The notes under the pieces: model-generated
What the model was told of the DNA's origin: nothing
Databases searched by the model: none
The model's input: the letters and a program-made list of their open reading frames with translations, nothing else
Shown: positions 1 through 27,542 of the stretch, one piece after another
Layout: each line of letters opens with the position of its first letter
Position numbering within the stretch: the stretch's first letter is position 1
Made by a program: the position numbers and the translations under genes
From: a virus
Length of the DNA stretch: 27,542 bases
Strand: one strand, 5' to 3'
UHGV virus genome: UHGV-0297460

Positions 1-318
1 CTCAAACTCTTCGGGGAATGCTGTAATAAGATTACGCATCTGCTCCCTGTCGCCGGACGCATAAGCATCCGCATAACCTTTCTGGAATGCCGCTTTACGC
101 TCCTGCTTTTGCTGCTGCTTATAAATATCAGCAACTCCAGCCAGACCACGAAGACCTGTCAGAGCAACGTTATTTGCACCTGATCGAGCCAGTTCATTGT
201 TTTCGCGGATCAGACCAAGCGTTGCGTTAATGTCGCTTGCCTTTGGCGCATTCTCATTTTGCGTACCGATGCCAGCCAGAAACCCACCAGAATTAATACC
301 CTGTTGCCACGTAGCCAT
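1..318 (-). CDS. Ejection (injection) protein, P22 gp20-like; N-terminal part only, gene continues beyond window start
   Basis: ATG at 316-318 on minus strand preceded by AAGGGG; own translation [58 protein letters not shown] resembles P22 gp20 N-terminus; sits after gp7 as in P22 order 14-7-20. Confidence 0.75.
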
Positions 319-328
319 TGATTACCCC

Positions 329-1021
329 TTAAAACAACGAGCCAAGCAGACCAAGACCAGCACCGATACCAGCACCCCACGGAGTTGATAGCTCGAGAGC
401 ACTGGCTATGCCACCACCCAAAAGCGCACCGGATGCAGCACCACTAACACCCTGCTGCAATGCTGACGGTCGGTTGGCGTTTGCCGCTGCAAGAGCCGCG
501 CTTTGCTGTGAAATCTGACTCATGTTGTTGGCATATGTTTGCCCGGCGTTTGCCTGCCCCTGAAGAGCGCCAAGACCGATATTTGCCAGGTTGTTGTAAT
601 TGTTCATTTGTCCAGATAGCCATTGCTGACCAAGCGTTGGTGCGATTGTTGCTAACTGATTACTGGTTGCGGTGGAACCCAATCCACCTGTTGCTTCCGC
701 TGCCGCCAGACTCTGATAGCGAGCCTGACCTGCAAGGTCTTTATACTGCTGAGAGTTGTAATACTGGTTAAGTGCCTGACCTTGCCCTTCCAGAGACGAT
801 AAGTTCTCAAGGCTGCCGACATACTTCCCAGCCAGAGGAGTAAACAGCTTCAGGTTGTTCATGATGGTGTTGAACTGCTGATTTTGCAGGTCTGCGGCAT
901 ACTTCTGAGCTTCTGCTGCATACTTTGCGCTTTTATCAGAACTGCCACCTTTCCCGCCTTTTTCAGGGTAATAAGGTTCCTCGCCGCGCAGTTTTCTGCC
1001 CAGCGTAAATGCATATAACAT
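329..1021 (-). CDS. Ejection protein, P22 gp7-like
   Basis: 230 aa ORF; position and composition (Gln/Ala/Gly-rich) match P22 gp7, recalled as about 229 aa. Confidence 0.8.
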   Translation of the reverse strand: MLYAFTLGRKLRGEEPYYPEKGGKGGSSDKSAKYAAEAQKYAADLQNQQFNTIMNNLKLFTPLAGKYVGSLENLSSLEGQGQALNQYYNSQQYKDLAGQARYQSLAAAEATGGLGSTATSNQLATIAPTLGQQWLSGQMNNYNNLANIGLGALQGQANAGQTYANNMSQISQQSAALAAANANRPSALQQGVSGAASGALLGGGIASALELSTPWGAGIGAGLGLLGSLF

Positions 1022-1023
1022 GG

Positions 1024-1479
1024 CTATCTCCCGTGATTCAGGAAGTCGATTAGTTCTTCGCGTGTGGCGCTGTAAAACGTCACGTCATCCACGCCTTTGA
1101 AGTATTTCTTGATGGTTCCTACACGCTTAAGGCCAATCATTGCGCAGTACATCTGCCCGTGGCGGAATTTGCGTGCAGCAAATGATGTGACGCACTGAAC
1201 GGTGGTGTTGGTCAGAATGTATCGCCAGAACGCCAGCCCTATTTCCTTGCTGAAGCCGCGAATCTCTGGCAGGTACATGGCGTGGCAATCGAATGTAAGC
1301 GGCTGAATCTCCTGATAGTAAACAATGCCGCCAAACTGACCGTGCACGTTCACCTCAAAGTAACGGCAATCAGGTTTGTAGTCGTATCCATCACCGTTGT
1401 TGCTCCCGGCGATGATGTCAGGGTGATTTCCTACTGCTTCGATCAGGTCGATGTTTCGCGTTGGTTTGAATGTAATCAT
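1024..1479 (-). CDS. P22 gp14-like virion protein
   Basis: 151 aa ORF between tail needle and gp7 genes as in P22 order 26-14-7. Confidence 0.7.
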   Translation of the reverse strand: MITFKPTRNIDLIEAVGNHPDIIAGSNNGDGYDYKPDCRYFEVNVHGQFGGIVYYQEIQPLTFDCHAMYLPEIRGFSKEIGLAFWRYILTNTTVQCVTSFAARKFRHGQMYCAMIGLKRVGTIKKYFKGVDDVTFYSATREELIDFLNHGR

Positions 1480-2180
1480 CAGTCAATCAGCCCATGTAAT
1501 CTAAGTGCTGTTTCAAGCGCCAGAATACGCTGCCGCGCCTGCTCCAAACCTGTAGCGATAGCTGCGACTTCGGATTGTGTGTACGTAGTGCCGACCGTGT
1601 ATGACTGGTTAGCGTTGAATGAGCCAAGAAGTGGTGTGCCTGTGGCCGCTGTCCATCCGGTCTGCCTTGCTCCAACGACCTGAATTCCATCAACTGAATA
1701 TGATGTTTTTACATCCAGCGGTGACGCAAGAGACTGCGATTCTGTTACGGTTTTCGATACGTAATCACTCTTAATGTCAGATATATCGCTTTCTACGCCA
1801 TCCAGTCTTTGGTCAACAGTGACCAGATGCGCCTGAATATCGATAACCTCATCCAGCAAGTAATCAACATCGCTACGCAGTACAACTATCTTCCCTTCGG
1901 CGGTTGTTAACCTGACCTCAAGGAGATTTATCGCTTTTGTGTTTGCGGTGATTCTTGCATCGTGGTCAGCCAGTTCGACATCCTGTTCATCGTTTTTCAC
2001 CTGAGCATCGTAAGCGCCCTGACCAGCCTGATTTGCTTTCCCGGCAATTGCGCCGACATCAGCCCCCTGATTAATGACATACAGCAGGTAAGACTGGCTG
2101 AATATATTGCGTGGAAGGATTGATGTATCGAGCCGCGTCGCCTGCACAATAACAGGGGTGTTGAGATTCGAATCAGCCAT
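1479..2180 (-). CDS. Tail needle protein, P22 gp26-like
   Basis: Internal start [25 protein letters not shown]... of the 267 aa track ORF gives 233 aa; coiled-coil heptads; C-terminus ...[12 protein letters not shown]; ATG at 2178-2180 overlaps gp10 stop (TAATG). Confidence 0.9.
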
Positions 2181-3598
2181 TACTCGATCCTTATCTGGCA
2201 GCCAGACAGAGTGACAGGTGACTTCGTGATAACGCGCAATTTGAAGCCGACATTTTTCCTGATGCGCCCGACTCGCTTCCACAAAACGCGTTTGTCGTAA
2301 ACAAACGGTTCATTCTGCTCAATCATCTGCTCACGACCGTAATTGATGCCGTCAGTGGTTGCAGAGAGAAAAAGGCGGTCGGCGTACTGCGCAACGCCAG
2401 TTGAAGATTCAACTTCAAGGTCGAAAACTCTGGCGTTATCCGCTTTGAACAGAGGAGTAAACAGCAGATGCTCCTGTTGCTTGTCGTACTGGCTGCTGAT
2501 GTCGAATTGCAATTTCCCGGTCACGGACTCCAGCTTATCGCCGCACGTTATCTGATTGCCTTCGTAAATGAAGTCGATAGCGCGGTACACATCGTCATAC
2601 AGACCTGTTTTCAGTACACACCATTGCGGAGCATTGGCGCTTGAAGATGCGTCGTATACGAGGACATGGCGCGGAAGATGGATAATCAGCAGCTCATGCG
2701 CATCAAATCGCAGAGACTCCATCACACCATCAGCCAGTTCATCAGCAGTGTAGGAGCGAAGAATTTTCTCAATGCTCGCGCTGGCGATTGGTGACACCTG
2801 CCCGGAACCGATGATGTATACAGACGGCGCACCTGTTGCCGGATTGCTGATGAACGCATAGGAATCAGCGAATGGCGTTTTGCAATAGGTTCCGGCGATG
2901 CCTTTTTGCACCATCAGTGATGGCTGTGCGACATACAAAGCAGCACCAACGGTGGTTGCGCCAGTCAGGGAGAAATATTCAATAGTCGATGAACCAAAGC
3001 AGACGATGAAGTCTCGCCATGTCCCGATACCGATGATGCCGTCCGGCTGCGATTCTGCGCGATATTGTGCACTGTATCGGTCAGGGTGCGATTCGTCTTC
3101 AAGGTCAGTGATAAACCATGAATCAGTTCCGTCTTTTGACCACGCATAACGCCCACGTAAGCGAGTAATGTCGCGAACTGAACCTAACTCATACTGCGTG
3201 AATCCACTGTCTGTAGGCCAGTTTGAGACGGTTTTAACCGTGCCATCATAACGATACTCGACCAGTTGACCATTAACGCCTACAGCCTGTGATGTTCGAC
3301 CATGCGCCATTGATACGCGACCACTTCCGGCGACGTCACCAACTTCGCTTTCTCCTTTGTACAGCTTGCCGCCACACACGCGATAAACAGCACTCTGCGC
3401 CATGTTGTACTCGACGCCGCGCGATATACCATTCACATCAGAACGTTTGGCAATGCCCGGGAATGAGCGAAGATATCCGCTGCTGTTCAGGATTTCTTTG
3501 GGCGTAGCCAACATATTCACTGGCAGATAGTCGATATAGTCGGCGTTTCGAAAGTCTTTGCCGACACCTTTCATAAGCGGAAGTTGCTGAATCGGCAT
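2180..3598 (-). CDS. Tail accessory (head completion) protein, P22 gp10-like
   Basis: 472 aa, [49 protein letters not shown]... near-identical in pattern to P22 gp10 as recalled. Confidence 0.9.
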
Positions 3599-3607
3599 TT
3601 ATTCACC

Positions 3608-4069
3608 TCACGTACTCGGATCATCTTTCTCGATGTAAAACCGATTCCACGTAAACGCGCTTTTGTTACCACTACCGCGAGGCATGTCATTTCGCCGCTC
3701 AAGTGGTGGTATTTTGGTTAAAGCGATACAGATTGTCTGATATGCACTGTCAGCAGCGGTAAGGAGAGCGTCTGACGGCTGAATGACGTTATCCATGCAC
3801 ACTTGCACAGCGAGTTTCAAAGCGACGCCATCATTTGCCCATGCAGGGATGCCTGAATCATCGTCAGGTAACGGCATGATGCCGTTTTCTGTATCAGCAA
3901 ACTGATACCCAAGCTCGATACCTTTCGCCTGCCATGCTGCCATCATGTCTTCGAGGTCATTAATGGCATCTTCAATTGCCTGAGGGTCAGCATCTGTCAA
4001 CGTGGCATTGGAATACAGCCCGGCTTTTCGTAAAGCCTTTAGAACGAGATCACCCTTCGTTTTCGCCAT
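3608..4069 (-). CDS. Tail accessory protein, P22 gp4-like
   Basis: 153 aa, MAKTKGDLVLKALRKAGLYSNATLTDADPQAIEDAINDLEDMMAAW... matches P22 gp4 pattern; position between coat and gp10. Confidence 0.85.
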   Translation of the reverse strand: MAKTKGDLVLKALRKAGLYSNATLTDADPQAIEDAINDLEDMMAAWQAKGIELGYQFADTENGIMPLPDDDSGIPAWANDGVALKLAVQVCMDNVIQPSDALLTAADSAYQTICIALTKIPPLERRNDMPRGSGNKSAFTWNRFYIEKDDPST

Positions 4070-4238
4070 CTTCTTCCGCCTTAGCCACTTTTTGCTTCGT
4101 TGCGGTTTCTTCAGGAGTTTTTACCCAACCTTTTTTCAGGTGAGATTTAACTTCTTCGTCATCAACAATGATGTAATCGACAGCAAACTGACCGCAGGTG
4201 ATCATGTTGCCTGGCTTATAGAGCATTGTTCGTGCCAT
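4050..4238 (-). CDS. Small hypothetical protein (62 aa)
   Basis: Internal ATG (MARTMLYKPGN...) of 75 aa track ORF preceded by GGGAGAAG; lies between coat terminator and gp4. Confidence 0.45.
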   Translation of the reverse strand: MARTMLYKPGNMITCGQFAVDYIIVDDEEVKSHLKKGWVKTPEETATKQKVAKAEEDGENEG

Positions 4239-4250
4239 TGTCTTCTCCCA

Positions 4251-4272
4251 ATAAAAATGGGGCCGAAGCCCC
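4251..4272 (-). terminator. Rho-independent terminator just after coat gene
   Basis: Minus-strand GGGGC-ttcg-GCCCC hairpin followed by ATTTTTATT. Confidence 0.6.
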
Positions 4273-4279
4273 ACCAAAA

Positions 4280-5533
4280 TTACTGCCCAGCAATAACGAT
4301 GCCCGTATATTCAGGAACCAGTACAGAGCAACCGTACAGAGTGGTGAAACGCGCAGTGGTTACGCCTTTGATGTGGTCGAAGGAGTAAGACATGATCAGC
4401 GTAGCGCCCTGCTCGGTGGTTGCTGTCATTACCTGTGGACCCTGACCAGTTGGGAACGCCAGTTTGCCGTACATCAGTTCAACAGAACCATCAGCCCAGA
4501 ACAGGTTAGCAGGTGCTGCGTTCTTGTTGAGAATGGTGATTGCTGCTGATTCTGCCGGTTTGGCATCGACGTTTGCATATGGACGACTCGCAACATCAGT
4601 ATTTTCAACAGGGAGAATCTTTGGAGAAATTGTTACGGTAGTTCCGCTAACAGCCAGAACACGGAATACCTGCGGTTGACCGGTGGTATCTTTTGTGATC
4701 TGGTGTACGGAATTCACACCGGCAATGGTGAACGCATCACCAACCTGCAAGCCAGATGCAGATACCGTAATAGTCCCCTGTCGGTTATCAACTGGCATAC
4801 CATTTGAATCTTTCGCTTCAACCTTGTGTTCAGGTTGGCCTGATACTGTCAAGGATTCAGTGCTTCCTTTCGGTAATCGACCAGAAATATCGGTCTTGTA
4901 GCTATCAAAGGAAGCAACCGGAGGGATCTGCGCTTTTTCGTATGCTGTCAGGGTTGCGCCCTGAGCGTAGGCTCGGTGACCAAGCTCGCCAGCAAGGTCT
5001 TTGTAGTTGAAGGGGTTCCAAAAAGAGCGGCGGTTGATACCCTGTGGCACACCAATCGCCGTCATGGTGGCATCAATACCTGCCGCACAGTTCCACAAAT
5101 CACGGCCCTGTGAACCAGTGGTTGAGTCAGCCATTGTGATCACGTTAGTAGCACGCTGCGTGACCATGGAAATCAGGTCAGAGTCAATCTGTGCAGCAAG
5201 GCGCATACCTGCGGCGCGACCAGCTTCAGTTTTATGCTCAGGGTCACGCATTTCACGCGCATCCAGAGTGTACAGAATGTTTTTCGGCTCCTTGAACACT
5301 GAAGGAACAAGGCGCTGAACCAGTGCTGTTGGCGTTTTGCTGCTGAGGTCGAGGCCTTCCTCAATGTTCATGTGGTAATGCTGCGGACGATACAGAACAT
5401 CACCTGCTCGCTGCATTGCTGTATCACCGGGACGGAATTTTTTAGCGTTACGGGAAACTACGCAGGCGGCCTCAAAGCCTTCAACGTAGTTTTCGAACAT
5501 GATTTCAAGGTCTTTTGCTAATTGGTTATCCAT
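4280..5533 (-). CDS. Major capsid (coat) protein, P22 gp5-type
   Basis: 417 aa; shares landmarks with P22 coat (AKKF/Y..P....MQR near N-terminus, C-terminal ...LYGCSVLVPEYTGIVIAGQ versus P22 ...GVGLPGQTA); follows scaffold gene. Confidence 0.85.
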   Translation of the reverse strand: MDNQLAKDLEIMFENYVEGFEAACVVSRNAKKFRPGDTAMQRAGDVLYRPQHYHMNIEEGLDLSSKTPTALVQRLVPSVFKEPKNILYTLDAREMRDPEHKTEAGRAAGMRLAAQIDSDLISMVTQRATNVITMADSTTGSQGRDLWNCAAGIDATMTAIGVPQGINRRSFWNPFNYKDLAGELGHRAYAQGATLTAYEKAQIPPVASFDSYKTDISGRLPKGSTESLTVSGQPEHKVEAKDSNGMPVDNRQGTITVSASGLQVGDAFTIAGVNSVHQITKDTTGQPQVFRVLAVSGTTVTISPKILPVENTDVASRPYANVDAKPAESAAITILNKNAAPANLFWADGSVELMYGKLAFPTGQGPQVMTATTEQGATLIMSYSFDHIKGVTTARFTTLYGCSVLVPEYTGIVIAGQ

Positions 5534-5551
5534 GCTTAATGCTCCGATAGG

Positions 5552-6445
5552 TTATTTTTTTGCCTTTTTAGCGGCGAAATACGGCGTCCAGTCACCAGTT
5601 TCCAGCGCCTTGGCTTTCAATTTGTCGAGGTTGTTGATTACTGCGCCGTTGCTCCCCTTAACCGTCGGGGTTGTGGCTGCCGTGGTTTTTGCTTTTGGCA
5701 TGATTCTGGCCTTCGATTCGATACGTTCCAGCAGACGACCAATTGCTACGGGGTTGGTAGCTTCTGCCAGTTGCTTGCGCAGTTCAGCGTTGCGACCAAG
5801 CGCCAGAACAACGATTTCCGGCTTCTCTGACTCAAACAGGATCGCGTTTTGTGTCTCGATGGGGATTTCCTCGAGTACGGCCTGCTCAGCTTCCTGATAG
5901 CCAGGAACTTTGAGAGCCTTAACACGTTGCTGATATTTGGATAATCGCTCTTGATAGGCAGCCTGAAGCTCCTGCTCCTTCTGCTTGCGAGCCATCTCCT
6001 GTTGCTGGTACTTGCCATTATCCTCTGCCCACTTAGCCATGCGTTGCTGGTAGATTTCTTCATCGAAACCGATGTCCTCATCATCCAGTTTTGGCATTCG
6101 CGGTGGTTGAGTGATTACCGGCTGCTGCTCGACGGGTTTCTGAGACTGACGCATCAGCTCTTTCAGCTCGCGGTCTTTCTCTTTAATCGTCTTGCGCAGG
6201 TGTTTTACCAGTCCATGCTCAGCGCCATCTTCGCTGGTTGGCGAATCCAGCTTTTCGTCACCAAAGTAGAATTCCTGTTCTGATTCGTCGTCATCAGTTT
6301 CAGTAGCCTCCTCTGCATCATTGCCTGAGGACTCACTGCCATCTTCTGTTTCGACTTTTTCAGCCAGTTCGACATCATCAGGAATCTGCTCTGACGCGTC
6401 GGTTTCGATTTCAACTTCTGGTGTGTTTTCTGCCATCTGGTCCAT
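5552..6445 (-). CDS. Scaffolding protein, P22 gp8-like
   Basis: 297 aa, highly acidic N-terminus, Gln/Glu/Lys-rich coiled-coil, basic C-terminal helix ...GDWTPYFAAKKAKK; between portal and coat. Confidence 0.85.
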   Translation of the reverse strand: MDQMAENTPEVEIETDASEQIPDDVELAEKVETEDGSESSGNDAEEATETDDDESEQEFYFGDEKLDSPTSEDGAEHGLVKHLRKTIKEKDRELKELMRQSQKPVEQQPVITQPPRMPKLDDEDIGFDEEIYQQRMAKWAEDNGKYQQQEMARKQKEQELQAAYQERLSKYQQRVKALKVPGYQEAEQAVLEEIPIETQNAILFESEKPEIVVLALGRNAELRKQLAEATNPVAIGRLLERIESKARIMPKAKTTAATTPTVKGSNGAVINNLDKLKAKALETGDWTPYFAAKKAKK

Positions 6446-6535
6446 TTGTTACCCCTGTTTACTCGATGTTCAGCCCATCGGAAGGCAATAGGGTGCCAGG
6501 CCTCATAAAGACAGCCATTGCACGTTATGGGTTAA

Positions 6536-8734: not shown

Positions 8735-8735
8735 A

Positions 8736-10588: not shown

Positions 10589-10590
10589 GT

Positions 10591-18065: not shown

Positions 18066-18090
18066 GTTACAAGCTCAGTGATGTAGATGG

Positions 18091-20411: not shown

Positions 20412-20413
20412 AA

Positions 20414-20686
20414 CTACCTGCCTTGACGAAAGACCTTAAGAACATCGTTAAACTGACTTACGGATATGTCTTCTTTGAGAAGCTTTTCCAGAAATGCGTT
20501 TGGAATGAACGTATATCCCTCCTCTTTTGGTAGAGACGGGAGCAACGCCCTCGCCTCAGCCTTCAGAAGCTCAGTTCTGGCAACTTTCACAAAAGAGATT
20601 TGAGTTCTTTCATCAATGGAACGAAGGAAGCGCAAACGCTTAGCTTCTTTGTGTGTATCAGGTGGATTAAAGCCTTTGTTTCGCAT
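20414..20686 (-). CDS. Hypothetical protein (90 aa) between cII and replication initiator
   Basis: Internal ATG of the 181 aa track ORF (MRNKGFNPPDTHKEAKRLRF...) preceded by GAGG; the 5' portion of the long ORF overlaps cII and is taken as spurious. Confidence 0.5.
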   Translation of the reverse strand: MRNKGFNPPDTHKEAKRLRFLRSIDERTQISFVKVARTELLKAEARALLPSLPKEEGYTFIPNAFLEKLLKEDISVSQFNDVLKVFRQGR

Positions 20687-20708
20687 ATAATTACCTCGTT
20701 GGATGTTG

Positions 20709-21002
20709 TTAAAATTCCATTTGTATTTGATCAGAACGCTCGGTTGCCGCCGGGCGTTTTTTATTGGTGAGAATCGAAGCAACTTGTCGTGCCAATCGAG
20801 CCATGTCGTCGTCGACAACACCCCATTCAAGAACAGCAAGCAGCATTGAGAACTTTGGAATCCAGTCCCTCTTCCACCTGCTGATCTGCGACTTATCAAC
20901 GCCCACAGCTTCCGCTGTCTTCTCAGTTCCAAGCATTGCGATTTTGTTAAGCAACGCACTCTCGATTCTTAGAGCCTCGTTGCGTTTGTTTGCACGAACC
21001 AT
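20709..21002 (-). CDS. cII: Transcriptional activator CII (lambda cII-type)
   Basis: 97 aa from internal Met: MVRANKRNEALRIESALLNKIAMLGTEKTAEAVGVDKSQISRWKRDWIPKFSMLLAVLEWGVVDDDMARLARQVA... matches lambda CII as recalled. Confidence 0.92.
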   Translation of the reverse strand: MVRANKRNEALRIESALLNKIAMLGTEKTAEAVGVDKSQISRWKRDWIPKFSMLLAVLEWGVVDDDMARLARQVASILTNKKRPAATERSDQIQMEF

Positions 21003-21058
21003 ATGTAAGTATTTCCTTAACAAATAAGAAGTTATGCGCATCAACTTATGCGCGTTGT

Positions 21059-21104
21059 ATTCCCGCATTTCGGCGGGAATGAGGACCATGACTGTTAAAG
21101 AGCA
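21059..21104 (-). promoter_or_regulatory. nutR-like element: boxA-like TGCTCTTTAA followed by hairpin ATTCCCGC-cgaaat-GCGGGAAT; second hairpin plus U-rich run just downstream (tR1 candidate)
   Basis: Read on minus strand between cro stop and cII start. Confidence 0.45.
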
Positions 21105-21110
21105 ATTTGC

Positions 21111-21296
21111 TTATGCCGCTTTGCGGTAAGCGCTTTCTTGATACTTCAGGGCGCCAGCTGTAACGACTTCCAGTCGATAGGCGTCTTTCTCTGGGATGAC
21201 TTCCTTCCACTGAGAGACTGCTGCGTCGCTAATGCCTAACGCTTTAGCTACAGCACGCTGGGTTCCGAAGTGGTCGATAACATCTTTCTTGTACAT
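21111..21296 (-). CDS. cro: Cro repressor (P22 Cro-type)
   Basis: 61 aa, MYKKDVIDHFGTQRAVAKALGISDAAVSQWKEVIPEKDAYRLEVVTAGALKYQESAYRKAA matches P22 Cro as recalled. Confidence 0.92.
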   Translation of the reverse strand: MYKKDVIDHFGTQRAVAKALGISDAAVSQWKEVIPEKDAYRLEVVTAGALKYQESAYRKAA

Positions 21297-21310
21297 AGAC
21301 TCGCTCCGAA

Positions 21311-21376
21311 ATTAAAGAACACTTAAATTATCCACTAAAGGAATCTTAAGTCAAGTTTATTTAAGATGTCTTAACT
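21311..21376. promoter_or_regulatory. OR region: three 18 bp operators (21311-21328, 21334-21351, 21359-21376) with divergent PR/PRM
   Basis: Palindromic half-sites ATTAAAG/CTTAAAT, ACTAAAG/CTTAAGT, ATTTAAG/CTTAACT with 4 bp centres; PR -35 TTGACT and -10 GATAAT on minus strand. Confidence 0.75.
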
Positions 21377-22027
21377 ATGAAAACTCAATTGATGGGAGAG
21401 CGCATTCGCGCTCGGAGAAAAGAACTCAAGATCAGGCAGGCCGCACTTGGAAAGATGGTCGGCGTGTCTAATGTTGCCATATCTCAGTGGGAACGCTCTG
21501 AGACAGAGCCAAATGGAGAGAATCTTCTCGCCCTGGCTAATGCGTTGAAGTGTTCCCCTGACTATCTGATGAAAGGAGAGGAAAGTCTTTCAAACATTGC
21601 CTATCACAGTAGGCATGATCCAAGAGGGTCATACCCTCTGATTAGCTGGGTGAGCGCAGGATGCTGGATGGAAGCTGTAGAACCATATCATAAGCGTGCA
21701 ATAGATAACTGGTACGATACAACCGTAGACTGTTCAGAAGATTCGTTTTGGTTGGACGTGAAGGGAGACTCAATGACGGCTCCGGCCGGTCTCAGTATCC
21801 CTGAAGGAATGATAATACTCGTCGATCCTGAAGTAGAGCCGCGTAACGGGAAACTGGTAGTTGCAAAGCTCGAAGGAGAAAACGAGGCAACTTTCAAGAA
21901 GTTAGTTATTGATGCAGGCAGGAAGTTTCTAAAACCACTTAACCCACAATATCCGATGATCGAGATCAACGGAAACTGCAAAATCATCGGCGTAGTTGTC
22001 GATGCAAAACTAGCAAACCTTCCATAA
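21377..22027 (+). CDS. c2: Prophage repressor, P22 C2-type (LexA-like autocleavable)
   Basis: 216 aa, MKTQLMGERIRARRKELKIRQAALGKMVGVSNVAISQWERSETEPNGENLL... near-identical to P22 C2 as recalled; C-terminal S24 peptidase region (GDSM...K). Confidence 0.95.
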   Translation: MKTQLMGERIRARRKELKIRQAALGKMVGVSNVAISQWERSETEPNGENLLALANALKCSPDYLMKGEESLSNIAYHSRHDPRGSYPLISWVSAGCWMEAVEPYHKRAIDNWYDTTVDCSEDSFWLDVKGDSMTAPAGLSIPEGMIILVDPEVEPRNGKLVVAKLEGENEATFKKLVIDAGRKFLKPLNPQYPMIEINGNCKIIGVVVDAKLANLP

Positions 22028-22052
22028 GGGGGCATTCGCCCCTTTTTTTTTA
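22028..22052 (+). terminator. Rho-independent terminator after repressor gene
   Basis: GGGGGC-attc-GCCCC hairpin followed by T9. Confidence 0.7.
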
Positions 22053-22093
22053 TTTCCTTTAAAAATCAAAGCCAAACTTAAGTTACGAAAGAA

Positions 22094-22148
22094 AATTTAA
22101 GTTTTCTTCAAAAATGCTCTTGACCATTAATTAAAGAGATCTTAAATT
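22094..22148 (+). promoter_or_regulatory. OL/PL region: operators (perfect palindrome ATTAAAGagatCTTAAAT at 22130-22147; weaker site 22094-22111) overlapping PL (-35 TTGACC 22120-22125, -10 TAAATT 22143-22148)
   Basis: Same half-site family as OR; promoter hexamers with 17 bp spacing. Confidence 0.65.
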
Positions 22149-22464
22149 TAAGCCATCAGCAGGACGCTGGAAGCCAAACGGAACAGATTGGCAGGCTCTT
22201 TAACATTGATGGGATTGTCCCGCCGAAATGCGGGAACCAAAGAGTAGTTGGCTTTGGGGTGACGTGAAGTGCAGCTGCACGACGGCAACCGGAAGATAAG
22301 CACCCGGCGCGTCACCGCCAAAGTCAATTCCATAGGCGTTATGCAGCCGCCACCATATTCAAGAAAGCTGCACAAGAGGTAGGAGGATTTATGTGAATGC
22401 ATAACTTCAAAACCGAGGTTAATTAAATCTCTCGATCCGAGCATCGACCTATTAGGTGGCGAGA

Positions 22465-22493
22465 TGCTCTTTCTGCCCCTCAGTTCGAGGGGC
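22465..22493 (+). promoter_or_regulatory. nutL-like site: boxA-like TGCTCTTTC plus boxB-like hairpin GCCCCTC-agttc-GAGGGGC
   Basis: Located about 60 nt upstream of the N-like gene start. Confidence 0.5.
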
Positions 22494-22548
22494 CAGAAAC
22501 CACTTTGCAATCACTATCAATTCCAAAGTTGTTTCATCGGAGGTCAAC

Positions 22549-22848
22549 ATGACAGTAGTCATTACATATCTGGCTGACGATAACGCCAGAAATCGCCGCA
22601 GAGCACGCAGACAGGCTCAACGTGAACAGGCGATGCAAGAACAGCGACTGGCGCGAAAAATTGCGCTAAAGCTCTCTGGTTGCGTCAGAGCGGATAAAGC
22701 AGCATCACTCGGAATCCTTCGCTGCAAGAAGGCAGATGAAGTCGAGAGTAAACAGAATCGTATTTACTACCGCAAGCCACGCAGTGAAATGGGTGTGACT
22801 TGTGTTGGTCGCCAGAAAATGAAATTAGGCAGCAAACCACTTATTTGA
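22549..22848 (+). CDS. N-like early antiterminator (P22 gp24-like)
   Basis: 99 aa from internal ATG with GGAGG SD; arginine-rich motif DNARNRRRARRQAQREQ near N-terminus; first gene of PL operon. Confidence 0.75.
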   Translation: MTVVITYLADDNARNRRRARRQAQREQAMQEQRLARKIALKLSGCVRADKAASLGILRCKKADEVESKQNRIYYRKPRSEMGVTCVGRQKMKLGSKPLI

Positions 22849-22856
22849 GGTGATAT

Positions 22857-23327
22857 ATGACAAAATCATGGAGCGTACCTTTTCCTGAATCAGAAACTGA
22901 ACATGATGGAATGCCTGTTTTCTGGAGATTCCAAGCGACAGTTGAAGAAGATGGAATCAAAATATTCGCACTTCAATATATAGCTTTTCATCAGACAGAG
23001 CATTATGCATGGTTGGTTCCTGCGCATTGGATTGTTAATTTTAAACCAGCACCAAATCAGTGGTTACAGGAATGGAAACAAAGGAGAAATAGATATGCAA
23101 TTAAGAAAGTAGCAAAAAATGCAGAAAGATCTTTTGCATTCCCGACGAAGAAACTTGCCATTGAAAGTTTATTGCGCCGGAAGAAATACCATTTGATGAG
23201 AATCAAACAAGATTTGGCTGTTGTATCAACTCTTGTTGATGGGATGAAGAATATTGATACATCAACACCAGGTATTGAATATAACTTTGGACACAACCAA
23301 GAAACAGAAAACTGGGTGTTTTATTAG
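22857..23327 (+). CDS. Hypothetical protein (156 aa), low-GC accessory gene downstream of N
   Basis: GAGGTG SD; visibly AT-rich relative to neighbours; followed by its own hairpin and terminator; no family recognised. Confidence 0.55.
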   Translation: MTKSWSVPFPESETEHDGMPVFWRFQATVEEDGIKIFALQYIAFHQTEHYAWLVPAHWIVNFKPAPNQWLQEWKQRRNRYAIKKVAKNAERSFAFPTKKLAIESLLRRKKYHLMRIKQDLAVVSTLVDGMKNIDTSTPGIEYNFGHNQETENWVFY

Positions 23328-23431
23328 TACGAATAAGCACTGTGTATTCATTCCAACGAGTGAATACACGGAGCAATGTCGCTCGTAACTAAACAGGAGC
23401 CGACTTGTTCTGATTATTGGAAATCTTCTTT

Positions 23432-23457
23432 GCCCTCCAGTGTGAGGGCTTTTTTAT
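23432..23457 (+). terminator. Rho-independent terminator (tL1-like)
   Basis: GCCCTC-cagtgt-GAGGGC followed by TTTTTTAT. Confidence 0.65.
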
Positions 23458-23521
23458 ATGCATACCAATAACGCTTCACTCGAGGCGTTTTCGTTATGCA
23501 ATCAAACAGAAGGAGCATCCT

Positions 23522-23692
23522 ATGCAACAGTTCGCTATTGCAGGGGCGGCATCGGTTCGCCCTTTCAACCCGATTTTATCGGTACAGCATTCACGAAAAA
23601 ACATTTTAACCGGAGCAGACTTTAAACAACCAAGAATGAAAAGCTTGCTCGAAAAGCTTTGGGATATTTTGAAACAACAAGGCCGTCCATGA
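23522..23692 (+). CDS. cIII: CIII-like protease-inhibitor peptide (lambda cIII / P22 c3 homolog)
   Basis: 56 aa, MQQFAIAGAASVRPF...SLLEKLWDILKQQGRP parallels lambda CIII MQYAIAG...ESLLERITRKLRDGWKRLIDILNQPGVP; AAGGAG SD. Confidence 0.65.
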   Translation: MQQFAIAGAASVRPFNPILSVQHSRKNILTGADFKQPRMKSLLEKLWDILKQQGRP

Positions 23693-23847
23693 GTTTTACG
23701 GATAACTGGTCAGACGAAGAATTCATTCGTCAGATAAAAGAATTAATCGGTAACGAAGGAGATATTCATGTCACTTGCAACCACAGTGAAGGAGAGCAAG
23801 TTACAGAGACGCATGTACACGCAGAAAGCTCTCTGGTATCGCCATAA
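23689..23847 (+). CDS. Small hypothetical protein (52 aa; kil position)
   Basis: ATG overlaps cIII stop (ATGA); MSFTDNWSDEEFIRQIKELIGNEGDIHVTCNHSEGEQ... Confidence 0.4.
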   Translation: MSFTDNWSDEEFIRQIKELIGNEGDIHVTCNHSEGEQVTETHVHAESSLVSP

Positions 23848-23948
23848 TGGTGACCGCGAAGGAATGCGGGTATGCCTTAATTTGTCCCGAGTCGAAGTAT
23901 TAAATCAGCGTTATTTCCTTGGGCCGTGTCCATTCTGAGAGCAATCAT

Positions 23949-24554
23949 ATGAGCAAAGAATTTTACGCAAGACTGGCAGCTATTCAGGAGAATCTGAACG
24001 CGCCAAAGAATCAGTACAACTCATTCGGCAAATATAAATACAGAAGCTGCGAAGATATTCTTGAAGGCGTTAAGCCGTTACTGAACGGTCTGTTTTTATC
24101 AATCAGCGATGAAGTTGTGTTGATTGGTGATCGGTATTACGTGAAAGCCACGGCAACTATTACCGATGGCGAAAACAGTCATACGGCAACCGCTCTTGCA
24201 CGAGAGGAAGAAAGCAAGAAAGGAATGGATTCTGCACAAGTTACGGGAGCTACAAGCTCTTATGCACGCAAGTATTGCCTCAATGGTTTGTTCGGCATTG
24301 ATGATGCGAAAGATGCAGATACAGACGAGCATAAACATCAGCAGAACGCAGCAGCAAAGCAATCAAAACCATCACTTACACCTGAACAGGTTCTAAAAGC
24401 ATTCACTGACGCAGCAATGCAGAAAAACACCGTAGAAGAGCTTAAACAGGCGTTCGCCAAAGCGTGGAAGATGCTCGAAGGGACGCCGGAGCAGCACAAA
24501 GCGCAGGACGTTTACAACATCAGACGAGACGAATTAGAAGGGGCAACTGCTTAA
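23949..24554 (+). CDS. erf: Erf-family single-strand annealing recombination protein
   Basis: Internal start MSKEFYARLAAIQENLNAPKNQYNSFGKYKYRSCEDILEGVKPLLNGLFLSISDEVVLIGDRYYVKATATITDGENSH... matches P22 Erf as recalled. Confidence 0.9.
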   Translation: MSKEFYARLAAIQENLNAPKNQYNSFGKYKYRSCEDILEGVKPLLNGLFLSISDEVVLIGDRYYVKATATITDGENSHTATALAREEESKKGMDSAQVTGATSSYARKYCLNGLFGIDDAKDADTDEHKHQQNAAAKQSKPSLTPEQVLKAFTDAAMQKNTVEELKQAFAKAWKMLEGTPEQHKAQDVYNIRRDELEGATA

Positions 24555-24937
24555 TGGCACATTCGATTACAGTAAGACTAAACAAACCCGCAAGAGAGTT
24601 TCAGGGCGGGGAAAATATCGGATTCAACATCCGTGCTGGCGTTCAGTATTACGATCGCCAGACAAAAAAGAAAGAATGGACAAACTACAGCGCCGTTGTA
24701 TTTGCCAAGCCGGGAGCGCAAGCGGATTACTATCGTAGCGTTCTGGTTGAAGGAGGCATTGTAGAAATTACCGGAGAAAACATCAGGGTTGATGTTTATC
24801 AGGGGCAAAATGGTCAATCAATCACTCTTGAATTACTGAATGCAAAGATTGGATTTGCAACTTCAGGAAACAGCCAACAGCAGCAAAGTAGCAATCATCA
24901 AAATAATCCTGAATACGACGATTCCATCCCATTCTGA
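24554..24937 (+). CDS. Single-stranded DNA-binding protein (SSB-like, acidic C-terminal tail DDSIPF)
   Basis: 127 aa from ATG overlapping erf stop (TAATG); Gln/Ser-rich linker and SSB-type C-terminal tail ...PEYDDSIPF. Confidence 0.7.
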   Translation: MAHSITVRLNKPAREFQGGENIGFNIRAGVQYYDRQTKKKEWTNYSAVVFAKPGAQADYYRSVLVEGGIVEITGENIRVDVYQGQNGQSITLELLNAKIGFATSGNSQQQQSSNHQNNPEYDDSIPF

Positions 24938-24960
24938 TTTAGAAAAATAAGGATTTAATT

Positions 24961-25257
24961 ATGCCAGCGCCTTTGTATGGTGCGGATGACCCGCGCCGCT
25001 GTTCCGGCAATTCCGTATCGGAGGTGCTGGATAAATTCAGAAAAAACTACGATCGAATAATGTCTCTACCGCAGGAAACGAAAGAGGAAAAGGAATTTCG
25101 CCACTGTATATGGCTTGCAGAGAAAGAAGAACGCGAGCGAATTTACCAGACATCAATCCGACCATTCCGCAAAGCCACATATACCCACTTCCCTGAATAT
25201 ATCGACCCGCGCCTGCGTAATTACCGCTCACGCTATGGCGCTATCAGTAATGACTGA
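24961..25257 (+). CDS. Hypothetical protein (98 aa), possibly Abc2-like anti-RecBCD factor (positional guess)
   Basis: AAGGA SD; located after erf/ssb where P22 carries abc genes; sequence identity not verified. Confidence 0.4.
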   Translation: MPAPLYGADDPRRCSGNSVSEVLDKFRKNYDRIMSLPQETKEEKEFRHCIWLAEKEERERIYQTSIRPFRKATYTHFPEYIDPRLRNYRSRYGAISND

Positions 25258-25351
25258 GGAATTTACCATGAGAGGACTTGCTTAAGAGAAAGAGTTTCGG
25301 TTCTGTTAATGACAACAAATATCTGAATGCGATGTGGCGGAGTGGGAAGAA

Positions 25352-25870
25352 ATGAAACAAATGTCACTAATTGAGATGGATGGTTTTCTGAAAGGTAAAT
25401 GCATCCCAAGTGATTTAAAGGTTAACGAAACAAACGCTGAATACCTTGTCCGTAAGTTCGGTGAACTTGAATCAAAACTGGAAACGGCGTTGCGGGAGTG
25501 TAGTTCTGCTGGAATCACGATTGATAACCTTGAGGCTAAATGCGCGAAGATGGCTGCTGAAAATACCTCACTTAAGCAATCTGAGAAGGAATTTAATGAC
25601 TTTTGTCGTGAGGAGTTTAGCGAATGGGAAGATGATGTTACTGAAACCCCAGCCACCGATGCTTTTCTGGCTGAAGTGCGGGCGCAGGGGGTGGATGCTG
25701 CTATAGAAGCTGCAAAAAATCTGGTGGCCCAAGAATATGAGTATAAGGATTTCAAAGCGGCGCAGAGTGATTGCTGTATGCACCCTGGTTCAGACCTGGT
25801 AGGGAAGGTTGAAATGACTGAGTGGTTAGTTGACTTTGCTGCCCAGCTTCGCAAAGGAGGCAACCAGTGA
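25352..25870 (+). CDS. Hypothetical protein (about 172 aa)
   Basis: ATG with GGAG/GGGAAG upstream; acidic coiled-coil-like protein; no family recognised. Confidence 0.45.
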   Translation: MKQMSLIEMDGFLKGKCIPSDLKVNETNAEYLVRKFGELESKLETALRECSSAGITIDNLEAKCAKMAAENTSLKQSEKEFNDFCREEFSEWEDDVTETPATDAFLAEVRAQGVDAAIEAAKNLVAQEYEYKDFKAAQSDCCMHPGSDLVGKVEMTEWLVDFAAQLRKGGNQ

Positions 25871-26166
25871 CTGTATGTCTTATTGATAAACGTCGACGTG
25901 GGCAACAAATACCATCTGTTGAAATGCCGAATCACACATGGTTTTGCGTACTTGATATCGATGGTATGGATACGTTGGTTGACACTCGTCATTACTGCGA
26001 TACCGCAACAGCTACTCCGGCGAAAGCAAAGAAAATGGCTGCTCTGATAGAAAACTGGACTCCACCTGATGGTTGGTGCAATGGGAATGATCGAGATTGG
26101 CACGAAAAAATGAAGGGCTATATCTGCGATTTTTTACGTAAATGCAACGGCTTCAGGGGGATGTGA
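25867..26166 (+). CDS. Hypothetical Cys/Trp-rich protein (99 aa, GTG start)
   Basis: GGAGG 6 nt upstream of GTG that overlaps the preceding stop (GTGA). Confidence 0.45.
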   Translation: MTVCLIDKRRRGQQIPSVEMPNHTWFCVLDIDGMDTLVDTRHYCDTATATPAKAKKMAALIENWTPPDGWCNGNDRDWHEKMKGYICDFLRKCNGFRGM

Positions 26167-26167
26167 T

Positions 26168-26740
26168 ATGACCAAAATTAACTATCAGGCACTGCGTGAG
26201 GCGGCAGAACGTGCAATTCCGGCAATGGAACGCCTGTTAATGTTGCCAGTTGATGATGATTTGTTAAGTGAACAGGAACTTAAGGATTACGGTGTGGATA
26301 TTGATGCGCTCAACGCCTTCAAATTTCTGACCGGACCAGAAACCGTGCTGGCGCTGCTGGATGAACGGGAAAGAAACCAGCAATACATCAAACGCCGCGA
26401 CCAGGAGAACGAGGAAATTGCGCTAACGGTAGGGAAGCTGCGCGTTGAGCTGGAAGCTGCAGAGAAGCGCATTGCAGAACTGGAAGCCGAACCTGTAAGC
26501 CAAACTTACAAGTTGAACGAGCTGTCGGGCAACTATCCGGTAACTCCGGATGGTTGGATAAGCTGTAGTGAGCGAATGCCCGCTCAAGATGATTGGATTT
26601 TAATTTATTCAAAGCACGGCGAGTATATGGCAGGACAGGTACAAGGGGAATACGTGGAGTTGAGCGACGGCACTTTATCGTGGTTAGGGAACGCCTTGTA
26701 CTGGATGCCTCTACCGGAACCGCCGCAGGAGGTTAATTGA
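26168..26740 (+). CDS. Ead/Ea22-like protein with C-terminal DUF551-like domain
   Basis: 190 aa; coiled-coil N-terminus and C-terminal ...PDGWISCSERMPAQDDWILIYSKHGEYMAG...WMPLPEPP recalled from lambdoid early-left region proteins. Confidence 0.55.
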   Translation: MTKINYQALREAAERAIPAMERLLMLPVDDDLLSEQELKDYGVDIDALNAFKFLTGPETVLALLDERERNQQYIKRRDQENEEIALTVGKLRVELEAAEKRIAELEAEPVSQTYKLNELSGNYPVTPDGWISCSERMPAQDDWILIYSKHGEYMAGQVQGEYVELSDGTLSWLGNALYWMPLPEPPQEVN

Positions 26741-26934
26741 TGGTCTCCTTCGCGAAATATACGATTATTGACTGGATAGCATTCATTCAGGTTTTGCTCA
26801 TCTGGTTTTATATGGCTTACAGGAGTGGACAGTGGATTGTCAGTGTAGCCTGTAGCAATGGATGGCGTTGGTGGAACCGAAAGAATAAAAAAAGCGCTGG
26901 CCTTGGCTTCGTTTTACGAAGCATTCAATCTTAA
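26737..26934 (+). CDS. Small membrane protein (65 aa)
   Basis: Hydrophobic/aromatic core; start overlaps upstream stop. Confidence 0.4.
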   Translation: MMVSFAKYTIIDWIAFIQVLLIWFYMAYRSGQWIVSVACSNGWRWWNRKNKKSAGLGFVLRSIQS

Positions 26935-27017
26935 CAGTCTTCAGCCTGGTTCTGTCGTTGTAGTCACCACTCAAAGCGGCATGACGATACAAATTCACAA
27001 GCCAAAGGAGGAAGGTC

Positions 27018-27302
27018 GTGGCTAACCTGCAACTTGCCGTTAAAGGTGAATACTTCGATGCCATGATTCGCGGAGAGAAAACGGAAGAGTATCGCCTGTG
27101 TAATGACTACTGGAATAAGCGAATTATGTTCCGCGAGTATGACCGCCTGATTATCACAAAGGGATATCCGAAGCGCGACGATTCCAGCCGCAGAATTGAC
27201 GTCCCGTATGACGGATATGAAATCAAGACAATCACACATCCGCACTTCGGCGATAAACCGGTAAAGGTGTTCGCTATAAAGGTGAATATCGACAATGAAT
27301 GA
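27018..27302 (+). CDS. ASCH/PUA-like small protein (94 aa, GTG start)
   Basis: AGGAGG SD; ...AVKGEYFDAMIRGEKTEEYR... beta-barrel-like motif; family call tentative. Confidence 0.45.
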   Translation: MANLQLAVKGEYFDAMIRGEKTEEYRLCNDYWNKRIMFREYDRLIITKGYPKRDDSSRRIDVPYDGYEIKTITHPHFGDKPVKVFAIKVNIDNE

Positions 27303-27374
27303 TAATCCTCGCACTCGCGGGGATTTCTTTTATCTGAACTCGCTACGGCGGGTTTTGTTTTATGGAGATGATAA

Positions 27375-27542
27375 ATGCACTTCCGAGTCACAGGTGAATG
27401 GAATGGAGAGCCATTCAACAGAGTTATCGAAGCAGAGAACATCAACGACTGCTATGACCACTGGATGCTGTGGGCGCAGATAGCACATGCAGACGTAACT
27501 AATATTCGAATTGAAGAACTGAAAGAACACCAAGCCGCCTGA
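27375..27542 (+). CDS. Small hypothetical protein (55 aa), ends at window edge
   Basis: Own translation MHFRVTGEWNGEPFNRVIEAENINDCYDHWMLWAQIAHADVTNIRIEELKEHQAA; GGAGATG SD; below the track cutoff. Confidence 0.4.
   Translation: MHFRVTGEWNGEPFNRVIEAENINDCYDHWMLWAQIAHADVTNIRIEELKEHQAA

Follow-up and report, generated by a model that had tools for sequence, protein, structure and literature searches.

A CUS-3-type P22-like prophage made of tiles common to other lambdoid phages, and a possible mobile RNA element between its Q and S genes

Introduction

The virus genome UHGV-0297460 (27,542 nucleotides, nt; the whole stretch is called the window below) carries side by side genes that recall phage P22 and genes that recall phage lambda. 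Where do these parts come from, and what lies at the joints between them? A first-pass annotation had read the window as a module-level mosaic, in which P22-type morphogenesis and immunity genes are combined with a lambda-type lysis cassette and cII, with exchange junctions at gene boundaries. That lambdoid and P22-like phages are mosaics, CUS-3 notably among them, has long been described. We found that the window very probably belongs to a prophage of the CUS-3 type, and that the spacer between its genes Q and S holds a structured, unannotated element (the Q-S element).

For the comparisons, 45 open reading frames (ORFs) of the window were translated, using as a guide the RefSeq annotation of the matching prophage in Escherichia coli ATCC 11775. 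They were compared by tblastn with CUS-3, P22, HK620, Sf6, lambda, HK97 and the DLP12 prophage of strain K-12, and ten of them were also run against Pfam. Protein identities are given at the amino acid (aa) level.

Identification of the prophage

Among 50,697 phage records searched by megablast, CUS-3 (CP000711.1) is by far the best match, covering 89% of nt 1-25000 at 99.3% identity and 91% of nt 20000-27542 at 99.1%. Local blastn resolves this match into three colinear blocks: window 65-16050 with CUS-3 12182-28167 (99.5%), window 18063-22859 with CUS-3 29323-34119 (98.1%) and window 23689-27542 with CUS-3 36317-40169 (99.9%). Together they account for 24,637 of the 27,542 nt, i.e. 89.5% of the window, at 98.1-99.9% identity. 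CUS-3 is a Lederbergvirus whose host is E. coli K1 RS218. It has the same gene order as the window, with identical head, terminase, lysis, Q, replication, immunity and erf genes, and the Q-S spacer is common to both. The differences include two segments replaced in the window (nin, 16051-18062, and early-left, 22860-23688), the left end, where the sequences part ways inside gene 20 left of nt 65, and an inverted duplication present only in the window. In addition, identity with CUS-3 dips to 92-98.8% in patches at 3501-5500 (coat), 18001-19500 (helicase/O) and 22001-22859 (c2-N spacer). Such patches within sequence that is otherwise 100% identical to CUS-3 suggest further small exchanges, or short recombination tracts, among CUS-3-like prophages.

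The same arrangement is also widespread in bacterial genomes. At least 80% of the window is present at about 100% identity in 69 of 5,426 complete E. coli genomes, including APEC (avian pathogenic E. coli) O1, S88, the type strain ATCC 11775 and several O1/O2:K1:H7 APEC strains. This prophage type is present in O1/O2:K1:H7 and APEC/ExPEC (extraintestinal pathogenic E. coli) genomes. In ATCC 11775, the prophage adjoins torI and dsdC and is 99.8-100% identical to the window throughout (500-nt bins); the tailspike gene and gene 16 lie beyond the window but are present in that prophage. The prophage of APEC O1, S88 and ATCC 11775 is about 100% identical over the whole window, but lacks the inverted duplication (181 bp) and has intact ninX and ninE genes. 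The two segments absent from CUS-3 (16051-18062 and 22860-23688) are common to the window and the APEC O1/ATCC 11775 prophage. The APEC O1 prophage has been named 'APEC-1' and placed among the P22-like prophages, whose early regions were described as highly mosaic (Villafane et al. 2008, PMC2629481); Sf101 has likewise been described as a CUS-3/Sf6 mosaic (PMC4159516).

The gene content agrees with this placement. From nt 10588 down to nt 1, the virion genes follow the order 3-2-1-8-5-4-10-26-14-7-20, as in P22 (assigned by tblastn or by position relative to P22, HK620 and CUS-3). The regulatory layout is lambdoid, with cII downstream of cro, c2 divergent from cro, and a putative N-type antiterminator accompanied by predicted nutL and nutR sites. 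No evidence contradicting the CUS-3-type identification was found. It is therefore very probable that the window represents 27.5 kb of a CUS-3-type, P22-like lambdoid prophage ('APEC-1' type), a mosaic of tiles common to other lambdoid phages. It spans the start of gene 20 and the head, lysis, nin, replication, immunity and early-left genes. As for the species, the criterion of the International Committee on Taxonomy of Viruses is at least 95% nucleotide identity over the full length. The comparison with CUS-3 gives 98.1-99.9% identity with 89.5% of the window colinear and two segments replaced, and about 13 kb of the phage lies beyond the window.

The first-pass annotation had taken a single known phage matching the entire window at uniform identity as the observation that would speak against mosaicism. 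CUS-3 comes close to this (89.5% at 98.1-99.9%), and the prophage is present at about 100% in at least 69 genomes. The mosaicism itself is untouched by these matches, but they remove its novelty.

Origin of the tiles

The features of the window other than those of the Q-S spacer are, from left to right:

1-318, minus strand: gp20 ejection protein, N-terminal 106 codons (RefSeq annotation of the matching prophage); the gene runs off the left end
329-1021, 1024-1479, 1479-2180 and 2180-3598, minus strand: gp7, gp14, gp26 tail needle and gp10; P22/HK620-type tail-proximal tile
3608-8734, minus strand: gp4, orf62, coat, scaffold and portal; CUS-3-type head tile, 98-100% to CUS-3
8736-10151, minus strand: TerL, 100% to Sf6, no P22 match
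10148-10588, minus strand: TerS, with an intragenic junction near nt 10243
11949-13166, minus strand: lysis cassette, Rz (Rz1 embedded), R and S (S is PF05106)
13167-13416, minus strand: lambda-type leader upstream of S, corresponding to the CUS-3 misc_feature 'bsq3'; Sf6 match 11787-13405
13763-14281, minus strand: Q antiterminator of phage-21/Sf6 type, 97% to Sf6 gp59, PF06530
14278-16003, minus strand: NinH, RusA, YbcO-like protein, Roi and NinF; HK620/HK97-type nin tile
16051-18062, minus strand: nin segment unlike CUS-3, with disrupted ninX/ninE, HK620-type ninB and small ORFs; no colinear CUS-3 match
18091-19467, minus strand: DnaB-type helicase, 99% to HK97 and 90% to P22
19464-20351, minus strand: O-type initiator, with an intragenic junction at about aa 165 (nt ~19859)
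19854-19996, no strand assigned: iteron-like 12-nt periodic units (..CATGTGCGG) inside O, at the domain junction
20709-21002, minus strand: lambda-type cII, 98% to lambda, PF05269 (Phage_CII)
21019-21000, minus strand: 20-mer TAAGGAAATACTTACATATG, identical in the window, lambda, HK620 and Sf6
21060-21103, minus strand: predicted nutR of HK620 type, by match to HK620 (boxA 21103-21093, boxB hairpin 21079-21060)
21111-21296, minus strand: cro, 95% to P22, PF14549 (P22_Cro)
21377-22027, plus strand: c2, 92% to P22, PF01381 (HTH_3) and PF00717 (Peptidase_S24)
22195-22234, plus strand: predicted nutL upstream of N (boxA 22195-22205, boxB 22219-22234)
22549-22848, plus strand: N, with an intragenic junction at about aa 64
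22860-23688, plus strand: HK97 gp45-like orf156 and cIII-like orf56; early-left segment unlike CUS-3
23949-27542, plus strand: Erf, orf127, Abc2 and ea-region genes; block with 99.9% nucleotide identity to CUS-3

The virion genes have P22 gene order, and the coat protein belongs to the P22 family over its full length (PF11651, P22_CoatProtein; E = 1.6e-75), so in these respects the first-pass reading of P22-type morphogenesis stands. It fails at the level of sequence for the head and terminase, where identity to P22 falls to 29% for the coat (P22 gp5), 35% for the portal and 41% for gp4, and tblastn finds no P22 match for scaffold, TerL or TerS. At the nucleotide level, a P22 match is absent over about 4000-10500, and matches to P22, HK620 and Sf6 alike are absent over about 4000-7000. 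These P22-distant head genes agree with published coat identities, the coat proteins of HK620, CUS-3 and Sf6 being only 14-28% identical to those of Salmonella P22-like phages (PMC2629481). The tail-proximal tile is closer to P22 (86-93%; 90-99% to HK620). Within the claimed P22-type group of tail needle, gp10 and gp4, gp10 fits well (93%), while gp4 does not and the needle is 62% identical to P22 but 95% to HK620, its match to Sf6 being limited to the N-terminal 141 aa. The gp20 fragment is 84% identical to CUS-3 and HK620 over aa 1-90 and divergent beyond, and the CUS-3 nucleotide match begins at nt 65. In TerS, only aa 116-146 (the last 31 aa) match HK620/Sf6 (84%), and this end adjoins the Sf6-type TerL.

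Taken by relative, P22 shares with the window the gene order, gp10, gp14, gp7, abc2, the helicase, c2 and cro and the coat-protein family. It differs in head and terminase genes that are highly diverged or unrelated by sequence, and in Q, cII (P22 c1), endolysin and the nin set. HK620 and Sf6 have in common with the window TerL (98-100%), gp10 and gp14 (98-99%) and the P22-like gene order. They differ in the coat (no match), scaffold (33%) and portal (55-56%), as well as in replication genes and immunity. HK620 further shares N with its nut sites and the nin genes, Sf6 shares Q with pR', and both have the lambda-type S and R. The siphoviruses lambda and HK97 have unrelated virion genes and a different immunity and Q; lambda has S, R and cII in common with the window (98-99%), and HK97 has erf, the helicase, the C-terminal domain of O, RusA, the YbcO-like protein, Rz and gp45 (94-99%).

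The lambda-type character attributed to S, R and CII was borne out, with 99%, 98% and 98% identity to lambda, although S and R are equally close (97-100%) to HK620, Sf6 and HK97. The lambda nucleotide match runs from 12138 to 13416 at 93%, and at about 97% over S and R; for cII it covers 20713-21019 at 96.7%. However, Rz is 57% identical to lambda against 97% to Sf6 and 93% to P22, so that the lysis cassette is itself mosaic and not wholly of lambda type. The Q-like protein is indeed not lambda Q (207 aa), which gives no tblastn match at E <= 1e-3; Sf6 gp59, to which the window's protein is 97% identical, is annotated as phage-21-Q-like.

In the nin region, the HK620 nucleotide match covers 14277-15969 at 97.2%. 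NinH, RusA, the YbcO-like protein and Roi are 95-100% identical to HK620, while NinF is 79% identical to HK620 and closest to P22 (95%). RusA (PF05866) and the YbcO-like protein (PF07102) belong to DLP12 families, as had been proposed, but with identities of only 43% and 70% they are further from the DLP12 proteins than from those of HK620/HK97 (95-100%). The segment 16051-18062 that differs from CUS-3 is a patchwork of HK620, P22 and Sf6 types: NinB has 96% identity with its HK620 counterpart against 37% with that of CUS-3, and P22 NinE is matched at 93-96% by the NinE copies. From aa 165 to 295, O resembles HK97 (94%) more than P22 (58%), and its N-terminal domain matches CUS-3 only. The iteron-like repeats (19854-19996) are a candidate replication origin.

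The immunity core is of P22 type, as claimed for C2 and Cro: the aa identities (92% and 95%) hold over the full length, and the P22 nucleotide match covers 21090-22211 at 84%. Next to it, the HK620 region 9424-9527, which carries the annotations nutR, tR1 and pRE, recurs at window 21000-21103 with 100% identity, and the boxB of nutL is identical to that of nutR. The first 64 aa of N are 95% identical to HK620, while its tail resembles lambda, Sf6 and HK97. In the early-left segment, where CUS-3 has ral, four other ORFs, cIII and kil, the window has orf156, 99% identical to HK97 gp45, and orf56 (56 codons, 23522-23692, plus strand). The latter starts with MQQFAIAG like CIII proteins and ends in ..SLLEKLWDILKQQGRP, but matches none of them significantly, and may be a cIII that has diverged or degenerated. 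A homologue of kil was looked for in the window and not found. Erf matches PF04404 and is 75% identical to P22, but its closer relative is HK97 (99%).

Position and anatomy of the junctions

Junctions were defined as the ends of blastn matches against the seven references. Those whose terminal 50 nt were at least 88% identical were considered sharp, and ends within 15 nt of each other were merged. Among the 51 sharp junction sites, 63% lie within 30 nt of a gene end (15% for random positions), the median distance to a gene end is 14 nt (131 nt for random positions) and 41% are intergenic (10% for random positions). None of 5000 randomisations reached the observed values. Junctions are thus enriched at gene boundaries, yet this is not a rule: mapping at the protein level places intragenic junctions in O, N, TerS, the C-terminal domain of the tail needle, the portal, Rz and gene 20. 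The expectation that junctions fall at gene boundaries was therefore right as a tendency. The intragenic junctions, a substantial minority, are at domain borders, and parts obliged to interact stay together. Thus aa 1-64 of N go with the identical boxB of nutL and nutR, the C-terminal 31 aa of TerS with the Sf6-type TerL, and the C-terminal domain of O with the helicase, while its N-terminal domain stands beside the iterons.

The two junctions that had been singled out, cro-cII and Q-S, both exist, but each is a patchwork of three tiles, not a single join. From cro to cII, in the direction of transcription, a P22-type cro is followed by a boxA (CGCTCTTTAACA, 21103-21093) common to P22 and HK620, then by a 104-nt stretch identical to HK620 (21103-21000) that ends in the shared 20-mer, and by lambda-type cII from its ATG on. 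From Q to S, Sf6/21-type pR'-tR' is followed by a 294-nt non-coding cassette (13699-13406) and by the lambda-type sequence upstream of S (13416-13167). This cassette replaces exactly the tRNA-Asn and tRNA-Thr genes (tRNA, transfer RNA) of Sf6, and on either side the match to Sf6 resumes a few bases at most from the ends of the tRNAs. In the CUS-3 GenBank record, the flanks of the cassette are labelled bsq3 and bsq4 and the c2-N spacer bsq5, all as boundary sequences, so that these junctions were already known at the time CUS-3 was published. The search for short linkers suggested by the first-pass annotation led to the structured cassette at Q-S.

The tiling, the junction positions and the short shared sequences are read directly from the alignments. 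From them we infer that the tiles stem from recombination between lambdoid phages. Exchange among co-infecting or resident lambdoid phages would produce the mosaic, and the junctions that survive would be those that leave function unbroken: between genes, between protein domains or inside short sequences common to both parents, such as the boxA of the nut site and the 20-mer that covers the ribosome-binding site and start codon of cII. The exchange could be homologous, at such sequences, or illegitimate and random, with selection acting afterwards. Homologous exchange within short shared sequences has reportedly been proposed for the boundary sequences of HK620, Sf6 and CUS-3. The pattern does not mean that lambda recombined with P22: each tile has its nearest relatives among other lambdoid or P22-like phages of E. 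coli (CUS-3, HK620, Sf6 and HK97).

Several explanations compete with this account, wholly or in part. The mosaic could be an assembly chimera of several prophages from one genome, since E. coli genomes hold several lambdoid prophages (a median of 3 matching places per genome) and the window has one odd private rearrangement. The recurrence of the arrangement at about 100% in at least 69 independently assembled genomes, and at 98.1-99.9% in the isolated phage CUS-3, rules this out and leaves it virtually no credence. Nor is the window at all likely to be a recent, first-generation hybrid of lambda and P22. The closeness of S, R and CII to lambda (98-99%) and of C2 and Cro to P22 (92-95%) would fit such a cross. 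But at the nucleotide level lambda matches no more than about 2.5 kb, and P22 does not match the head and terminase genes at all and reaches only 78-91% in the tail-proximal genes. Moreover, every tile has a closer or equal relative among CUS-3, HK620, Sf6 and HK97, and at least 69 genomes carry the arrangement in fixed form as a whole. It is quite possible, though short of an even chance in our estimate, that recombination was random and illegitimate, with the border positions reflecting only selection against broken genes and the short shared sequences playing no causal role. Many junctions, e.g. at 3608, 10593, 17181 and 23689, have no shared sequence detectable with our small reference panel, and intragenic junctions at domain borders are what selection alone would leave. 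On the other side, where a junction can be followed to the base, the cross-over interval is sequence of both parental types: the boxA, the 20-nt stretch from the cII ribosome-binding site to the ATG, the overlaps of 64-65 nt at 22148-22211 and 22795-22859, and the flanks of the Q-S cassette. At the junctions examined, we therefore give a modest edge to homologous exchange within short sequences common to both parents. Our account has some limits. The junction test relies on seven reference genomes only, BLAST ends are fuzzy where similarity fades, and the test has the same outcome for targeted recombination as for random recombination with selection. Moreover, the private 181-bp inverted duplication means that the window is not literally identical to any known record. 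Module-level mosaicism, borne out here by the per-gene identities and the permutation test, is real but already known for this phage type, and contains nothing new as stated.

Structure of the Q-S element

The spacer between Q and S, in contrast, holds an unannotated cassette. Its features, with those of the adjoining late promoter region, are:

13785-13756, minus strand: predicted late promoter pR' (TTGACA-18-CATAAT, score 11/12), overlapping the Q stop codon
13742-13705, minus strand: predicted tR', a terminator-like hairpin with a T run
13623-13699, minus strand: upstream long-hairpin frame 'H-A' (CACAACAGGUAAGAGCAUUG ... CAGUACUCUUAUCGUUGUG), 91-99% identical in unrelated phages
13411-13627, minus strand: three-way-junction element, unannotated, with covariation and G.U asymmetry, no Rfam family
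13626-13620 with 13419-13413, minus strand: closing helix of the element
13616-13601, minus strand: hairpin a
13438-13420, minus strand: hairpin b; between the hairpins a variable arm of 162 nt

Sf6 has the same sequence as the pR'-tR' region (13705-13785), with PR', qut and tR' annotated on it. Read in the sense of the late transcript, the element begins with one strand of a 7-bp closing helix (UGUGGUG/CACCACA), followed by a linker AAU and hairpin a (GCGCA-GGCUGA-UGCGC). A hypervariable arm (6 to 175 nt) separates this hairpin from hairpin b (GCCGG-AGAUCAGCA-CCGGC), and the 3' closing strand follows directly on hairpin b. The shortest whole element has 61 nt.

We collected 106 distinct frames with two independent probes, each of which fixes one half of the element. 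In these frames, which were accepted only with most positions paired and whose rows are non-independent, 94.9% of the cells pair, against 25-52% in controls with slid partners. Thirteen pairs vary on both sides (4.6 +/- 1.2 in shuffles; 0 of 500 reached 13), including all five pairs of hairpin a. In addition, G.U outnumbers A.C by 44 to 14, which points to a single-stranded function of the late-sense strand. The complementary loops GCUGA/UCAGC, which may contact each other, are invariant across the frames. The energy of the whole-tile fold is not significant (z-scores of -0.17 and -1.05), and the structural support is therefore the covariation, not thermodynamics.

The H-A frame is a second conserved frame with its own variable cargo, of the form CACAAC..AAGAGC[variable cargo]GCUCUU..GUUGUG. 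The 3' arm of H-A shares nucleotides with the 5' closing strand of the element, so that H-A and the three-way junction are mutually exclusive at the overlap. H-A also stands alone, without the three-way junction, in Salmonella phage SeSz-2 (locus L010, 1501-1579) and other phages.

Known classes do not account for the element. In Rfam 15, no family matches the frame, even in the shortest copies, and nothing matches within 13300-13800 at E <= 1; the only Rfam matches lie on neighbouring tRNAs or on the variable cargo (a fragment of small-subunit, SSU, rRNA). This applies to the hammerhead, twister and other known ribozymes and to the prophage small RNAs (sRNAs) AsxR, AgvB, DicF and STnc100. A protein-coding reading of the tile was rejected: there is no ORF in the late sense, the annotated 'hypothetical proteins' sit on the opposite strand, and the arm lengths, from 6 to 175 nt, show no periodicity of three (78, 84, 62 copies). 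tRNA genes, which occupy this gap in Sf6 and phage 21, were found here neither by ARAGORN nor by the Rfam tRNA and tmRNA (transfer-messenger RNA) models. The Pas sRNAs, known from prophages of pathogenic E. coli, have a 3' intrinsic terminator and are largely restricted to Escherichia/Shigella (bioRxiv 10.64898/2026.05.13.724894). The frame is set apart from them by these described features, as it has no terminator hairpin with a U tract in the supported (late) sense, and the element is also present in phages of Klebsiella, Hafnia, Aeromonas, Edwardsiella and Erwinia, beyond the Pas range. Searches of the literature by sequence string and keyword found no description of it.

Distribution and possible nature of the Q-S element

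By blastn, the element was found in 107 isolated phages and is annotated in none of them. The carriers include T1-like and Webervirus-type siphophages, Taipeivirus myophages of about 158 kb, Stx2 phages and HK620. The element sits downstream of three Q families and two CI-type repressor families. Overall, its three-way-junction frame is present in hundreds of unrelated phages of Enterobacterales and Aeromonas, both temperate and virulent. An exact 25-nt block of the cassette occurs in more than 120 IMG/VR contigs among the matches listed and in 35 GTDB species genomes, mostly of Enterobacterales and Aeromonas. A few metagenome-assembled genomes and small scaffolds from other phyla that carry this block may be misbinned. 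In HK620 (L003), a full short copy lies at about 16094-16194, between the annotated qut (15610-15652) and the late terminator tQ (16241-16267). If pR' acts as in lambda, this copy would be part of a short constitutive leader RNA made without Q.

The element resembles a tRNA in architecture only. It has a closing helix of 7 bp, from which a 3-nt linker leads to a first hairpin with GG in its loop, a variable middle arm and a last hairpin contiguous with the 3' closing strand. It is also co-oriented with, and abuts, tRNA genes in several phages, and it is swapped exactly for two Sf6 tRNA genes. It differs from tRNA in that it has no canonical T-loop, anticodon arm or encoded CCA, and in that its middle arm ranges from 6 to 175 nt. 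Co-oriented tRNA genes abut the element in Klebsiella phage KP591P1, L072, L188, Hafnia phage Meifeng and Aeromonas phage 62AhydR11PP. Despite these cases, an obligatory tie to tRNA genes was rejected, as only 9 of 148 element loci have a tRNA within 1.5 kb downstream. In KP591P1 (L207, 2501-2872), the element lies 5 nt upstream of a tRNA-Ser/Arg/Met cluster, in an island opposite in strand to the flanking structural genes. In Klebsiella phage UPM 2146 (L208, 1393-4729), it lies in a 3.3-kb stretch without an annotated coding sequence that ends in tRNA-Met and tRNA-Arg.

In three loci (L097 4600-4646, L103 624-670 and L146 3337-3383), the variable arm, 47 nt long, mimics helix 11 of 16S rRNA. 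Its match to positions 237-283 of the bacterial SSU model has E = 9e-6, that to a related SSU model E = 1.4e-7, and a flipped base pair keeps the helix. Weak matches to tmRNA models (E = 0.13-0.47, none significant alone) lie just upstream of the element on the same strand in five loci (L068 5378-5479, L146 3004-3191, L133 1806-1907, L072 1003-1110 and L188 1810-1865). Besides, an ORF resembling an SsrA tag (ANDEQFLAVA*) lies within 700 nt upstream of four element copies. These tmRNA-like matches and tag-like ORFs are hints only.

Our best guess, held with low confidence, is that the element is a mobile, tRNA-shaped stable RNA presenting a variable arm. In its full form, this is a tentative proposal that may well be wrong. 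The 294-nt Q-S spacer would be a cassette of two RNA frames, and the three-way junction a new mobile family of phage stable RNAs. Its tRNA-like scaffold would present variable cargo resembling host translation RNAs, e.g. as decoys for host RNA-binding or RNA-cleaving factors, and the conserved 25-nt blocks would serve as homology for module exchange between unrelated phages.

The main rival is a DNA element resembling a miniature inverted-repeat transposable element (MITE), or a recombination 'linker', with imperfect inverted repeats as ends (GTTGTGGTG...GCTGAT), whose likeness a DNA-binding enzyme would maintain. The halves of the element are indeed inverted repeats of each other, its interior is hypervariable in length as in MITEs, and it occupies non-homologous sites in unrelated phages, at module borders and after the three Q and two CI families. 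Concerted change of both ends would moreover mimic covariation in the closing helix. It would not explain why hairpins a and b covary internally, for which end-to-end symmetry offers no explanation, nor the bias of G.U over A.C (44 to 14) in one strand sense, nor the variable arms that, in some copies, are structure-preserving mimics of helix 11. A transposase gene is not a consistent neighbour of the element, and we noticed no target duplication. We therefore consider a MITE-like nature rather unlikely.

The private inverted duplication and other changes in the prophage

One rearrangement distinguishes the window from all its relatives:

16170-16762, no strand assigned: inverted duplication X1-A-rc(A m B)-B-X2, +181 bp, with perfect inverted repeats

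The repeats are 16170-16285/16579-16694 (116 nt) and 16283-16350/16695-16762 (68 nt), and the window is 181 bp longer here than all matching genomes. Relative to ATCC 11775, a 412-bp piece from mid ninX to mid ninE has been inserted, inverted, beside its own original, with a 3-nt overlap (GAC) at one joint, and both ninX and ninE are disrupted. In the 5,426 complete E. coli genomes, the best coverage of this region at any place is at most 57%; the 30-nt duplication junction was not found in IMG/VR, GTDB representative genomes or JGI metagenome contigs, and no record of the resulting chimeric ORF was found. The duplication is either a private template-switch mutation of the source strain or an artefact of sequencing or assembly.

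In the ATCC 11775 prophage, four features carry a RefSeq flag for a frameshift or for being partial. They are a hypothetical gene, DUF2737, an ead/Ea22-like gene and DUF4752, and map to window positions 17382-17703, 25272-25355, 26168-26479 and 26740-27025. The same prophage has an IS21-family insertion beside the tailspike gene, outside the window. These features suggest some decay of the prophage lineage.

Conclusions

The inverted duplication, if real, means that ninX and ninE are lost in this copy of the prophage. The prophage itself is of value as a clean worked example of lambdoid mosaicism, in which interacting parts travel together and junctions lie in short shared sequences. The element between Q and S weighs more than the mosaicism, as it is very widespread in phages and may represent a new RNA family.

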